IMG/VR virus record: IMGVR_UViG_2675903253_000005
Source of the DNA: a virus
Taxonomy: Duplodnaviria; Heunggongvirae; Uroviricota; Caudoviricetes
DNA length: 6,346 nucleotides
Strand: one strand, 5' to 3'
Each line of letters opens with the position of its first letter. The first letter of the stretch is position 1. The translations under genes were made by a program, and so were the position numbers. Of this stretch, positions 1,462 to 6,346 are shown in pieces. Under the pieces are notes generated by a model that worked only from the letters and a program-made list of their open reading frames with translations, made no database searches and was not told where the DNA came from.

Positions 1462-1483
1462 NNNNNNNNNNNNNNNNNNNNNC
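1462..1483. other. 22-nt run of N (scaffold gap or masked junction)
   Basis: Literal n characters. Flanked on the left by shaft sequence (equivalent to copy C position 2541) and on the right by the stf upstream flank. Confidence 0.95.
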
Positions 1484-1504
1484 CAGGTAACACAGTGTTA
1501 TGAC

Positions 1505-1531
1505 AGCCCGCCGGTTCAGGCGGGCTTTTTT
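1505..1531 (+). terminator. Rho-independent terminator directly upstream of stf (second copy of 432..458)
   Basis: Identical hairpin agcccgcc/ggcgggct with loop ggttca and T6 tract, ending 12 nt before ATG 1543. Confidence 0.75.
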
Positions 1532-1533
1532 GT

Positions 1534-1539
1534 GGGGTG
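1534..1539 (+). promoter_or_regulatory. Putative Shine-Dalgarno element for stf copy C
   Basis: ggggtga upstream of ATG 1543; same sequence as 461..466. Confidence 0.4.
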
Positions 1540-1542
1540 AAT

Positions 1543-4500
1543 ATGGCAGTAAAGATTTCAGGTGTACTGAAAGACGGCACAGGAAAACCGGTACAGAACT
1601 GCACAATCCAGCTGAAAGCAAAACGTAACAGCACCACGGTGGTGGTGAACACGCTGGCCTCAGAAAATCCGGATGAAGCCGGGCGTTACAGCATGGACGT
1701 TGAGTACGGTCAGTACAGCGTTATTCTGTTGGTGGAAGGATTCCCGCCGTCACATGCCGGGACCATCACTGTGTATGAAGATTCCCGACCCGGTACGCTG
1801 AATGATTTTCTCGGTGCCATGACGGAGGATGATGCCCGTCCGGAGGCTCTGCGCCGTTTTGAACTGATGGTGGAAGAGGTGGCGCGTAACGCGTCCGCGG
1901 TGGCACAGAACACGGCAGCCGCGAAGAAGTCAGCCAGTGATGCCGGCACATCTGCCCGTGAGGCGGCAACCCATGCGACTGATGCTGCAGGCTCAGCGCG
2001 TGCAGCCAGCACGTCAGCCGGACAGGCCGCGACTTCGGCTCAGGAGGCGTCTTCCAGCGCAGGAACGGCATCAACAAAGGCCACTGAAGCATCAAAAAGT
2101 GCTGCCGCTGCAGAGTCCTCAAAAAGCGCGGCGGCCACCAGTGCCGGTGCGGCGAAAACGTCAGAAACGAATGCTGCAGCGTCACAAAAATCAGCAGCCA
2201 CTTCTGCATCCACTGCGACAACGAAAGCGTCAGAAGCCGCCACTTCAGCCAGAGATGCGGCGGCCTCCAAAGAGGCGGCAAAATCATCAGAAACGAACGC
2301 CTCCACAAGCGCCAGCAGTGCAGCCTCCTCGGCAACGGCGGCAGGAAATTCCGTGAAGGCGGCAAAAACGTCCGAGACGAATGCTAAGTCTTCTGAAACG
2401 GCAGCGGAACAGAGCGCCTCAGCTGCGGCAGACTCTGAGACAGCAGCTGCATCATCGGCCCGTGAGGCGTCCATTAAGGCAGAGGAGGCAGCAGTCAGTG
2501 CCACCGCCGCCGGAAAATCGGCAGAAAGCGCCGCATCATCCGCTTCAACAGCCACAACGAAGGCTGGCGAAGCCACTGAGCAGGCCACGGCAGCAGCGAG
2601 GTCAGCTTCCGCAGCGAAGACATCCGAAACGAACGCGAAAGCGTCGGAAACCCGTGCAGAATCCTCAAAAACGGCTGGCGCATCGTCCGCCAGTTCGGCG
2701 GCGTCATCGGCATCATCGGCGTCTGCTTCAAAAGATGAGGCGACCAGACAGGCGTCAGCAGCGAAGGGCAGCGCCACGACGGCATCCACGAAGGCGACAG
2801 AGGCTGCTGGTAGTGCGACGGCAGCAGCTCAGAGCAAAAGTACGGCGGAATCTGCAGCAACGCGCGCTGAGACAGCGGCAAAACGGGCAGAGGATATTGC
2901 ATCCGCCGTGGCGCTTGAGGATGCGAGCACGACGAAAAAGGGGATAGTACAGCTCAGTAGTGCGACTAACAGCACTTCCGAGTCACTGGCGGCAACGCCA
3001 AAAGCCGTTAAGGCCGCGTATGACCTGGCTAACGGGAAATACACCGCACAGGATGCAACGACAGCACAGAAAGGGATAATCCAGCTAAGCAGCGCGACCA
3101 ACAGCACGTCTGAAACGCTGGCGGCAACGCCAAAGGCAGTAAAAGCAGCCAATGACAATGCTGAGAAACGTCTGCAGAAAGATCAGAACGGTGCGGATAT
3201 CCCTGGCAAAGACACCTTTACGAAAAATATTGGTGCCTGCCGTGCCTTCGGTGGGTCAGTAAGCACAACAACAGGAAACTGGACGACTGCACAGTTTATC
3301 GAGTGGCTGGATTCTCAGGGAGCATTTAACCATCCATACTGGATGTGCAAGGGTTCCTGGTCTTATGGCAATAATAAAATCATTACTGATACTGGCTGCG
3401 GTAATATTCATCTCGCCGGAGCTGTCATTGAAGTAATGGGGATAAAGTCAGCGATGACGATCCGCATTACCACTCCGACCACATCCAGCGGTGGCGGAAC
3501 AACCAACGCCCAGTTTACCTATATTAATCACGGAACAGATTATTCACCTGGCTGGCGAAGGGACTATAACTCCAGAAATAAGCCAACGGCATCAGAGATC
3601 GGGGCGCTACCGTCAGGTGGAACAGCAGTATCATCAGTTAATCTGGCTTCAAAAGGTCGGGTAGCCGCGCTGACAGACAATACGCAGGGGGCAGCAGGTC
3701 TTGAGTTATACGAGGTGTATAACAACGGATATCCAACAGCGTATGGAAATATCATTCACCTGAAAGGGATGACAGCCGTTGGCGAAGGTGAGTTACTCAT
3801 CGGCTGGAGTGGTACAAGCGGTGCTCATGCTCCGGCATTTATTCGTTCACGACGGGATACGACCGACGCAAACTGGTCGCCGTGGGCGCAGCTTTACACC
3901 TCGGCTCATCCTCCTGCAGAGTTTTATCCAGTCGGTGCACCAATCCCGTGGCCATCAGATACCGTTCCGTCTGGTTATGCCCTGATGCAGGGGCAGACTT
4001 TTGACAAATCTGCTTACCCGAAACTTGCAGCCGCTTATCCGTCAGGCGTGATCCCTGATATGCGTGGCTGGACGATTAAGGGCAAGCCCGCCAGTGGTCG
4101 TGCCGTATTGTCTCAGGAACAGGATGGCATTAAATCGCACACCCACAGCGCCAGCGCATCCAGTACGGATTTGGGGACGAAAACCACATCGTCGTTTGAT
4201 TACGGCACTAAATCCACGAATAACACCGGGGCGCATACGCACAGTCTGAGCGGCTCTACAAGTTCAGCTGGGGCCCACCAACATAGTCAGACTGGGCCCA
4301 GAACGAATAGCGGGAGTCAACCTACTGGAATGTTTCCGGCAGGGAGTACTCAAGTTAGCGGGACTAATCAGGTTGGTATCAGTGGCTCATTAACCAGTGG
4401 CACCTCCCAATGGGTAGGTAAATCATCTTCAGAAGGAAACCATACACACTCACTGTCCGGCACAGCAGCATCTGCGGGTGCACACGCGCATACTGTCGGT

Positions 4501-4626
4501 ATTGGTGCTCATACGCACTCTGTTGCGATTGGTTCACATGGACACACCATCACCGTTAACGCTGCTGGTAACGCGGAAAACACCGTCAAAAACATCGCAT
4601 TTAACTATATTGTGAGGCTCGCATAA
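1543..4626 (+). CDS. stf: Side tail fibre protein Stf, full length (1027 codons): N-terminal tail-attachment region, Ala/Ser/Thr-rich shaft, two phage fibre repeats, receptor-binding domain, His-box (HxH) tip
   Basis: Uninterrupted ORF from ATG 1543 to TAA 4624-4626. N-terminus [20 protein letters not shown]... and C-terminus ...[29 protein letters not shown] match my recollection of lambda Stf. [23 protein letters not shown] fibre repeats are present. Seven HxH motifs lie in the C-terminal 140 residues. Confidence 0.9.
1900..2930 (+). repeat. Low-complexity Ala/Ser/Thr-rich shaft region with degenerate repeats (recurrent K(T/S)SETNA and SAAA/TSA motifs)
   Basis: The protein is dominated by A/S/T/K/E here. 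SETNA recurs at about 2161, 2287, 2371 and 2626. The GCN-rich codons create long spurious antisense ORFs. Confidence 0.7.
2938..3150 (+). repeat. Two tandem phage tail-fibre repeats within stf copy C (one 44-aa unit plus one core unit)
   Basis: [44 protein letters not shown] (2938..3069) followed by [29 protein letters not shown] (3070..3150). This is the conserved fibre-repeat motif shared by lambda Stf, P2 H and Mu S-type fibres. Confidence 0.8.
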
Positions 4627-4649
4627 TGGCATTCAGAATGAGTGAACAA
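4626..4649 (+). CDS. tfa: Tail fibre assembly protein Tfa, first 8 codons only (MAFRMSEQ), then broken at the ambiguous base 4650
   Basis: ATG 4626-4628 overlaps the stf stop (TAATG). MAFRMSEQ matches my recollection of the lambda Tfa N-terminus. After n4650 the sequence is mid-stf shaft, not tfa. Confidence 0.6.
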
Positions 4650-4650
4650 N
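4650..4650. other. Single ambiguous base (N) at the breakpoint between the tfa 5' end and mid-stf shaft sequence
   Basis: ...agtgaacaa-n-gggcagcgccacgacgg: tfa-like sequence ends at 4649, and from 4652 the sequence parallels copy C from 2767. Confidence 0.9.
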
Positions 4651-4651
4651 G

Positions 4652-6346
4652 GGCAGCGCCACGACGGCATCCACGAAGGCGACAGAGGCTGCTGGCAGTG
4701 CGGCAGCGGCAGCACAGAGCAAAAGTACGGCGGAATCCGCGGCAACGCGCGCCGAGACAGCAGCAAAACGGGCAGAGGATATTGCATCCGCCGTGGCGCT
4801 TGAGGATGCGAGCACGACGAAAAAGGGGATAGTACAGCTCAGTAGTGCGACTAACAGCACTTCCGAGTCACTGGCGGCAACGCCAAAAGCCGTTAAGGCC
4901 GCGTATGACCTGGCTAACGGGAAATACACCGCACAGGATGCAACGACAGCACAGAAAGGGATAGTTCAGCTCAGCAGTGCGACTAACAGCACTTCCGAGT
5001 CACAGGCGGCAACGCCAAAAGCCGTTAAGGCCGCGTATGACCTGGCTAACGGGAAATACACCGCACAGGACGCTACGACAGCACAAAAAGGAATTGTCCA
5101 GCTCAGTAGTGCAACCAACAGCACATCTGAAACGCTTGCTGCGACACCGAAAGCAGTGAAAGCAGCTAATGACAATGCGAATGGTCGGGTACCTTCTGCC
5201 CGTAAGGTGAATGGTAAGGCGCTTTCAGCGGATATAACACTGACGCCGAAAGATATTGGTACGCTTAACTCAACAACAATGTCATTCAGCGGTGGTGCTG
5301 GTTGGTTCAAATTAGCAACGGTAACCATGCCACAGGCGAGTTCTGTTGTTTCAATTACGTTGATTGGTGGCGCTGGATTTAACGTGGGGTCACCTCAACA
5401 GGCAGGTATATCTGAACTTGTTTTACGTGCAGGTAATGGTAATCCGAAGGGGATTACTGGTGCTTTATGGCAGCGCACATTGACAGGGTTTACAAATTTT
5501 GCCTGGGTTAATACATCTGGTGATACTTACGATATTTACGTTGCAATCGGAAATTATGCGACTGGTGTAAATATTCAATGGGATTATACCAGTAATGCCA
5601 GCGTGACGATTCATACGTCACCAGCATATTCTGCTAATAAGCCGGAAGGGTTAACGGACGGTACAGTTTATTCACTCTATACGCCATCAGAGCAGTTTTA
5701 TCCGCCTGGCGCACCAATCCCGTGGCCATCAGATACCGTTCCGTCTGGCTATGCCCTGATGCAGGGGCAGGCTTTTGACAAATCTGCATACCCGAAACTT
5801 GCAGCGGCTTATCCGTCAGGCGTGATCCCTGATATGCGTGGCTGGACGATTAAGGGCAAGCCCGCCAGTGGTCGTGCCGTATTGTCTCAGGAACAGGATG
5901 GCATTAAATCGCACACCCACAGCGCCAGCGCATCCAGTACGGATTTGGGGACGAAAACCACATCGTCGTTTGATTACGGCACTAAATCCACGAATAACAC
6001 TGGTGCGCATACCCATAGTTTAAGTGGCAGCACGAATGCAGCTGGTAATCACAGCCATAGAGATGGCCGTCGATTTAACCCCAGTGTTTTTAAAGATACT
6101 TATCAATATGGTTATACAAGCTCAGGTCAAAATACCTGGGGTGTACAAGGCTCAGTAGGTATGTCTACGGGGTGGTTAGCGAATACCAGTATAGATGGTA
6201 ATCATAGCCATTCACTGTCCGGCACAGCAGCATCTGCAGGTGCACACGCGCATACTGTCGGTATTGGTGCTCATACGCACTCCGTTGCGATTGGTTCACA
6301 TGGACACACCATCACCGTTAACGCTGCTGGTAACGCGGAAAACACC
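4652..6346 (+). CDS. Stf-like side tail fibre, 3' portion of a distinct allele (copy D): shaft end, three fibre repeats, alternative receptor-binding domain, His-box tip with alternative insert; partial at both ends
   Basis: Frame-2 open reading from 4652 to the window end with no stop. The first ~170 nt parallel copy C 2767..2937. Repeats [15 protein letters not shown]... occur three times. Region 5708..6031 is near-identical to copy C 3934..4257, and 6212..6346 to 4450..4584. Confidence 0.85.
4823..5167 (+). repeat. Three tandem phage tail-fibre repeats in copy D (two 44-aa units plus one core unit)
   Basis: Units begin at K codons 4823, 4955 and 5087. Sequences are [88 protein letters not shown] and [29 protein letters not shown]. 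Confidence 0.8.

Follow-up and report, generated by a model that had tools for sequence, protein, structure and literature searches.

A putative receptor-binding tip cassette exchanged between His-box flanks in lambda-type side tail fibre genes of Escherichia coli prophages

When two copies of the distal end of a viral tail fibre agree almost base for base except over one short central segment, the question arises of how that segment came to differ and whether the difference alters what the fibre binds. The case considered here lies in a 6,346-nucleotide (nt) stretch of DNA from a virus of the Caudoviricetes (IMG/VR virus record IMGVR_UViG_2675903253_000005), called the window throughout and analysed over its whole length. 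It holds two copies, C and D, of the 3' end of a lambda-type side tail fibre gene (stf). Positions 4227-4449 of copy C very probably constitute the receptor-binding tip module of a lambda-type Stf whose C-terminal domain is homologous to the needle of phage T4 gp37, and this module has very probably been swapped by recombination. The needle carries seven HxH motifs, referred to below as His boxes 1 to 7, with the tip lying between boxes 3 and 4. The parts of the gene on which the argument turns are as follows.

1537-4626, plus strand: complete copy C of stf, encoding 1029 amino acids (aa), from the open reading frame list and Pfam
3934-4226, plus strand: left flank, comprising the collar/knob and the outgoing half of the needle stem, with His box 1 (HTH, 4138-4146)
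4227-4449, plus strand: exchanged cassette at the DNA level, C allele, from mismatch maps against D and eight other alleles
4285-4434, plus strand: hypervariable tip core of 50 codons, the predicted distal receptor-contacting pole of the trimer
4450-4623, plus strand: right flank, comprising the returning half of the needle stem and the C-terminal strand, from invariant columns; the stop codon is at 4624-4626
6001-6211, plus strand: counterpart cassette of copy D, the common allele, with its tip core at 6059-6196

The C cassette spans His box 2 (4234-4242), box 3 (HQH, 4276-4284), the tip core, and box 4 (HTH, 4441-4449), while boxes 5 to 7 lie in the right flank at 4483-4491, 4510-4518, and 4537-4545. 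A first-pass annotation of this DNA had described an unrelated insert at 4258-4449 between near-identical flanks, and the flanks are indeed near-identical: 3934-4257 matches 5708-6031 at 309 of 324 positions (95.4%), and 4450-4584 matches 6212-6346 at 133 of 135 (98.5%). The 12-nt difference in length that it reported was also recovered (192 nt, or 64 codons, at 4258-4449; 180 nt, or 60 codons, at 6032-6211). The left boundary, however, moves from 4257/4258 to a DNA-level joint at 4226/4227. Positions 4227-4257 encode the same peptide as D with only 21 of 31 nucleotides identical; the differences are mostly synonymous, and the segment is therefore counted in the exchanged piece. With this stricter limit the left flank (3934-4226 versus 5708-6000) is identical at 288 of 293 positions (98.3%), including all 194 positions of 4033-4226. 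The insert peptides previously quoted for C and D each lacked their first residue (T). The description of the centre as unrelated holds for DNA, since the cores at 4285-4434 and 6059-6196 align no better than shuffled sequence (z = 1.0), but is too strict for protein, where 15 of 50 residues are identical at a borderline z of 3.7. The resemblance between the two tip proteins appears to be faint at most.

Natural recombinants of reciprocal kinds are found in E. coli. In E. coli 200164 (locus L082), the prophage gene matches C at 1366 of 1370 positions over 2857-4226 and at 196 of 200 over 4450-4649, yet its tip is that of D. This amounts to an isogenic comparison in which 8 of 1,570 flank positions are mismatched, as against 91 of 223 cassette positions (Fisher p = 2e-80). 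The converse arrangement occurs in E. coli BH100N (L085), where the C cassette is intact at 223 of 223 positions and the middle domain is unrelated (409 mismatches in 757 positions). The tips of 120 protein homologues and 80 viral loci, 30-55 residues long and set between essentially invariant flanks, fall into about 10-12 types that are unrelated to one another. Both flanks are at least 95% identical to those of C, around a different tip, in 73 of the 80 viral loci.

The same pattern holds at the population level, as surveyed in 5,426 complete E. coli genomes, which contain roughly 6,700 stf places in all. At least 80% of positions 3157-4649 is present in 800 of these genomes, and the C cassette is included in only 11 of the 800; the remaining backbone matches skip it, falling into two pieces whose spans fit a tip of the D or K type or a shorter one. 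The cassette occurs in 25 of the genomes surveyed, at least 95% identical in all and at least 99% identical in 24, and 14 of these 25 are missing the C middle domain. No intermediate form of the C cassette was found in the survey; it is either at least 95% identical or absent. Copy C with both joints intact is present in 25 complete genomes, 5 IMG/VR contigs, and 3 metagenome contigs. The D allele region occurs in 1,280 genomes, and the D allele is carried by seven isolated lambdoid phages (Kati, PhiR34_1, PhiR26_1, mEp460_ev081, PhiR30_1, PhiR68_2, and PhiR42_1). The C tip is a rare allele and the D tip the common one.

Sharing of tips extends to virulent phages. The gp37 gene of the virulent T-even phage P896 (Gaprivervirus, L090) carries the D tip: window positions 6053-6210 are identical to it at 153 of 158 bases, but identity drops to 65% and 63% in the 84 and 90 bases that flank them (29 of 84 and 33 of 90 mismatched; p = 6e-15). 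The left joint of this match falls inside His box 3, and the right joint coincides with that between C and D, at the final base of box 4. The match indicates a recent transfer of a tip of about 160 nt between a virulent myovirus and temperate lambdoid phages.

Measured against C, the left joints of the various alleles fall at 4227-4263, a stretch that takes in His box 2 and ends just short of box 3. The right joints fall either at 4450, immediately after box 4 (D type), or at about 4489-4520, after box 5 (other types). The first-pass proposal of a recombination cassette between His-box flanks is borne out by the reciprocal natural recombinants and by the T-even/lambdoid pair that shares the tip only, with joints in or beside boxes 2-3 and 4-5. 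At the level of allele comparison, these cases show that recombination in the conserved flanks moves the tip as one unit, both among prophage stf genes and between them and T-even gp37. The tip is a self-contained insertion between nearly invariant His-box sequences, so homologous recombination can swap the tip alone. The positions of the joints are consistent with the His-box sequences being preferred crossover sites.

The placement of the cassette within the fibre follows from homology to T4 gp37. When the last 230 aa of C were searched against the Protein Data Bank with phmmer, they matched chain 2xgf_A at E 1.3e-81, with query residues 1-230 aligned to chain residues 32-242. This full-length alignment, in which all seven HxH boxes are conserved, agrees with the earlier assignment of the tip to the gp37/Stf family. 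The boxes of C occur in the order HTH, HTH, HQH, tip, HTH, HAH, HTH, HGH, each aligned to a T4 box, and all seven are invariant in 47 homologues. In the alignment, the HQH of C corresponds to T4 H929/H931 and its GNHTH to G964-H968; the left flank aligns to T4 gp37 from residue 816 and the right flank to residues 964-1026. The variable core at 4285-4434 is aligned to residues 932-963, that is, to the tip subdomain and four stem residues. In the T4 needle domain D11 (882-1009), the stem consists of residues 882-931 and 960-1009 and the tip subdomain of residues 932-959 (PMC6957217). Seven iron ions lie along the length of this needle, and alanine scanning of the tip, its distal pole, abolishes binding to lipopolysaccharide (LPS) and OmpC (PMC6957217). 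Homology thus puts the variable core of C in the T4 tip slot, a predicted distal rather than buried position, and by the same alignment 4227-4449 would encode the distal tip of a gp37-type needle.

The likeness to T4 gp37 (2XGF; collar D10 and needle D11) comprises the collar, the seven HxH motifs, the C-terminal strand, and a variable tip between boxes 3 and 4. The tip cores themselves are unrelated (6 of 50 identities) and differ in length, with 50 residues in C and 32 in T4 gp37. With its N-terminal PF08400 domain and Ala/Ser-rich shaft, the C protein belongs to the lambdoid side tail fibres, whereas T4 gp37 is the distal half-fibre of a T-even phage; the chaperone of C is Tfa (Caudo_TAP), unlike that of the T4 gp37 system. 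The Stf and Tfa of Ur-lambda have in common with C the gene family, the domain order, and, in homologous prophages, the position after J and lom. Lambda Stf is about 70% identical to C in aa sequence over the C-terminal domain; its tip (TSGLRMNSSGWSQYG...) differs from that of C. Relative to C, lambda Stf has an extra FDYGTK repeat in the outgoing strand and an extra HxH box in the returning strand, and its needle is probably one rung longer. A corresponding pair is seen when lambda and two T-even gp37 proteins (P896 and G2469) are compared with window positions 4180-4220 and 4490-4520: all three carry an extra SSFDYGTKT in the outgoing strand and an extra GAHxH box in the returning strand. 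They look like paired insertions, with which the needle would be one rung longer.

On this model, the three chains of the fibre would run outward along the needle through His boxes 1 to 3, about 50 variable residues would form the distal tip, and the chains would return through boxes 4 to 7. By analogy with T4, the seven HxH boxes would hold iron ions on the needle axis. Recombination in the flanks would replace the tip only and would leave the shaft, collar, needle, and Tfa unchanged. The partners in such exchanges could be co-resident prophages, superinfecting lambdoid phages, and T-even phages. A precedent exists in the T-even adhesins, in which exchange of specificity between conserved motifs is attributed to Tetart et al. 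1996 and 1998, as cited in PMC3157838 and PMC6957217. The likeness consists in a hypervariable segment bracketed by His-containing motifs and in natural mosaics jointed there. The present case differs in that it involves E. coli prophage stf genes and a pair formed by a prophage stf and a virulent T-even gp37, and in that its evidence is comparative only.

What the tips contact can be approached only by analogy. We infer from T4 mutagenesis and from the general role of Stf that the Stf tip contacts a receptor as the T4 tip does and that the C and D tips differ in what they bind. Ur-lambda Stf has been reported to bind OmpC, and data from the BASEL collection suggest that it also helps against unmodified O16 antigen (PMC11338833, PMC11990801). 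An alternative, possible but doubtful, is that the tips were exchanged yet recognise the same receptor class, with alleles that track polymorphism of this receptor or are distinguished by affinity alone. Some weight comes from the fact that the tips of T4 gp37, which binds OmpC or the LPS core, and of lambda Stf are unrelated and yet both fibres are reported to use OmpC (PMC6957217, PMC11338833, PMC11990801), and the C and D tips are still weakly similar (15 of 50 aa). Single substitutions in the T4 tip nevertheless abolish binding, which makes it unlikely that tips as different as these are equivalent on the same surface.

Several observations weigh against the interpretation of 4227-4449 as an exchanged specificity module, or limit how far it extends. 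The literature searched, including that on phages with the D tip (PhiR34_1, mEp332, and others) and on Stf tip types, reports no receptor for the C or the D tip. Given their weak similarity (z = 3.7), the two tips may have a fold, and even a class of receptor, in common. On either side of the tip the joints cover about 40 nt, which points to recombination in the conserved flanks generally and does not single out the His-box motif as a preferred crossover site; the boxes are also simply the conserved DNA nearest to the tip. A single-chain AlphaFold2 model of the C-terminal 230 aa, built from a 47-sequence alignment with a tool that accommodates neither a trimer nor iron, reached a mean pLDDT of 43 and a pTM of 0.16. 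The fibre is predicted to be an intertwined, iron-bound trimer, beyond the reach of a single-chain tool, which would account for the poor model. Since the monomer model is unusable, the distal placement of the tip rests on sequence homology to T4.

Other origins for the difference between C and D are far less probable than exchange of the tip. Receptor-binding surfaces are typical targets of diversifying selection, and small polymorphisms do occur within D-type tips (TSTD/TSID, W/A), as might be expected had the centre diverged in place under strong selection without recombination. Such divergence is highly improbable, because identity falls from 100% to chance within a few bases and synonymous sites are changed as well. 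It is further opposed by the occurrence of one cassette on unrelated backbones and of different cassettes on an identical backbone, by the lack of intermediates in the 5,426 genomes, and by the near-identical D tip in a T-even phage whose flanks have diverged by about 35%. The construction of the window invites a different doubt, namely that a chimeric contig or scaffold has mixed reads from several prophage stf genes: the window consists of four N-joined pieces with repeated stf fragments, and a genome can hold up to 6-7 stf genes. It is nonetheless most improbable that the cassette is such an assembly artefact, given that the cassette and both joints are intact in 25 complete genomes and the D region in 1,280; only the adjacency of C and D is suspect.

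Tail fibre tips are targeted in other phages by two kinds of programmed variation, invertible tail fibre segments (Gin/Cin/Pin) and diversity-generating retroelements (DGRs). A gene for a Pin-like "recombinase family protein" is present at 7373-7963 in the locus of E. coli Z1323HEC0016 (L001), a Qin-like prophage with the C allele, where it comes directly after a frameshifted tfaQ. The annotation of that locus contains no inverted alternative fibre end. Inversion is opposed by the absence of inverted repeats of at least 14 nt in 3900-6346 and by the arrangement of C and D, which are whole genes in the same orientation rather than alternative 3' ends. A DGR fares no better: the window contains no direct repeat of the cassette that resembles a template, the differences consist of complete replacement with a change in length rather than adenine-specific substitutions, and no reverse transcriptase is found among the neighbouring genes in the Z1323HEC0016 and BH100N loci. 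The identity of the C cassette, at least 99% in 24 of its 25 carrier genomes, also argues against programmed variation of either kind, which can be regarded as extremely improbable.

If the tips are exchanged modules, their composition and relatives bear on where they come from. The GC content at third codon positions (GC3) of the D cassette is 0.28-0.30, against 0.55-0.57 in its left flank, and that of P896 gp37 is 0.32; the C tip core has a GC3 of 0.38, against 0.55 in its left flank. The tip cores compared were those of C, D, L007, L008, L015, L016, L026, L043, L076, L092, and L093. In all nine lambdoid alleles examined, the GC3 of the tip (0.20-0.43) is below that of the left flank (0.41-0.58) and comes near the T-even values of 0.26-0.27. 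This pattern suggests that lambdoid tips have in many cases been acquired from AT-rich T-even genomes.

Among 50,697 phage records, the nearest relatives of the C tip are gp37 tips of T-even phages of the genus Mosigvirus (such as slur03/08/14, mar005P1, and vB_EcoM_G2469). These are about 60% identical to C in aa sequence over the tip and His boxes 3-4 and have in common with it the framework HQHSQTGPR...QPTG(M/I)FP...KSS(S/T)EGNHTH. Their flanks are about 70-75% identical to those of C at the DNA level and have T-even base composition. The nearest prophage Stf tip is the "Q" type of loci L015 and L016, with 22 of 50 identities and a z of about 9.5. No isolated phage among the 50,697 records carries the C tip itself; the best whole-domain match is 82.6%, the value expected from identical flanks with a different tip. 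A search of GTDB with one genome per species gave no relative of the C tip, and the JGI/ENA metagenomes yielded three C-tip contigs only, all 100% identical, with no diverged donor.

A tentative reading, somewhat less likely to be right than wrong, is that the C tip represents an uncharacterised specificity that recently entered a common E. coli prophage stf from an unisolated T-even-like donor, and that virulent T-even phages and prophages exchange tip modules of about 160-220 nt. If this were true, T-even host-range modules would be permanently kept in reserve in prophage stf genes, and the stretch running from His box 3 to box 4 would be the smallest unit that nature offers for giving fibres a new target. 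The rare C tip, not seen in isolated phages, is a candidate for a specificity that has so far gone unsampled.

That gp37 and Stf tips are mosaic and are swapped at conserved His motifs has been known since the 1990s and will not surprise phage biologists. What is added here are the limits of the exchangeable unit, which extends at most over about 4227-4449 and at least from about His box 3 to box 4. These limits could be used directly in engineering lambda- or T4-based particles with new host ranges. Also added are the finding that a D tip is common, nearly base for base, to a virulent T-even phage and temperate lambdoid phages, and the finding that one Tfa serves all tips.

The latter concerns the gene immediately downstream of stf, of which the window includes only the beginning.

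4626-4649, plus strand: start of tfa (MAFRMSEQ...), the ATG overlapping the stf stop codon; cut by the N at 4650

Only the first 8 tfa codons are covered by the window; in near-identical loci such as that of E. coli 200164, the full downstream gene encodes a Caudo_TAP protein (PF02413, E 1e-43). Co-variation of Tfa with tip type was considered and rejected, as the same Tfa family stands behind every tip type. One family, with near-identical N- and C-terminal stretches, follows the C, D, K, S, and other tips, which fits the conservation of the last 60 residues of Stf. On this comparison Tfa lies outside the exchanged module, and the tip alone is swapped.

The domain order of copy C is a PF08400 N-terminus (E 1e-71), an Ala/Ser-rich shaft, two Phage_fiber_2 repeats (PF03406), a middle domain, a collar (PF07484, E 7e-12; residues 800-847 of the 1029-aa protein), and the needle with its tip. 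In RefSeq the C allele bears only the generic names prophage tail fibre and phage tail protein. E. coli prophage genes 98.6-99.9% identical to the copy C stf are placed after J and lom. In the C-allele prophages of Z1323HEC0016 and BH100N the order is J, lom, stf, tfa; the window stops short of J and lom.

Variation is also seen elsewhere in the gene. The middle domain forms a second mosaic block, unrelated between C (3157-3919) and D (5042-5693), and that of E. coli BH100N is a third version; the C middle domain gives a match to Gp34_trimer, at a sub-threshold level only. Copy D has three Phage_fiber_2 repeats and copy C two. A tandem array at 4821-5124, with 2.3 copies of a 132-nt unit at 91% matches, encodes the Phage_fiber_2 repeat, and E. 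coli Z1323HEC0016 differs from C by a block at about 2923-3100 within this repeat region.

The window as a whole is interrupted three times, by single Ns at 409 and 4650 and by a run of 21 Ns at 1462-1482, and each of the four N-joined pieces is a fragment of a lambda-type stf gene.

1-408: piece A, Ala/Ser-rich shaft
410-1461: piece B, the 5' third of an stf gene
1483-4649: piece C, the complete 1029-aa open reading frame (1537-4626) and the first eight tfa codons
4650, no strand: single N between pieces C and D, a scaffold or concatenation joint
4651-6346: piece D, the 3' half of another stf gene, open at the window end

Pieces A and B and the 5' part of C are repeats of one gene region, 91-100% identical, and the window looks as though contigs that break off at prophage stf repeats had been scaffolded or concatenated. 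After the N at 4650, the sequence of piece D resumes in mid-stf, at the equivalent of C position 2766; this is also the exact starting point of an IMG/VR contig that carries the C allele. This shared start is the behaviour of contigs broken at repeat boundaries. Because of the N between them, the window gives no proof that C and D are neighbours; their adjacency is a scaffold or concatenation join and not an observed tandem, and the two need not share one genome.

A rearranged C-tip locus occurs in E. coli GDSC2239PM (L086). At positions 2192-5675 of this locus, an IS5 transposase gene precedes a C-tip stf fragment that lacks its 5' part. Where tfa would start after this fragment, a 296-aa Macro-domain protein (PF01661) is encoded instead, and a tfa gene then follows. 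The C-terminus of the Macro-domain protein is His-box-like (...IGAHTHTLNKQYSVSDIK).

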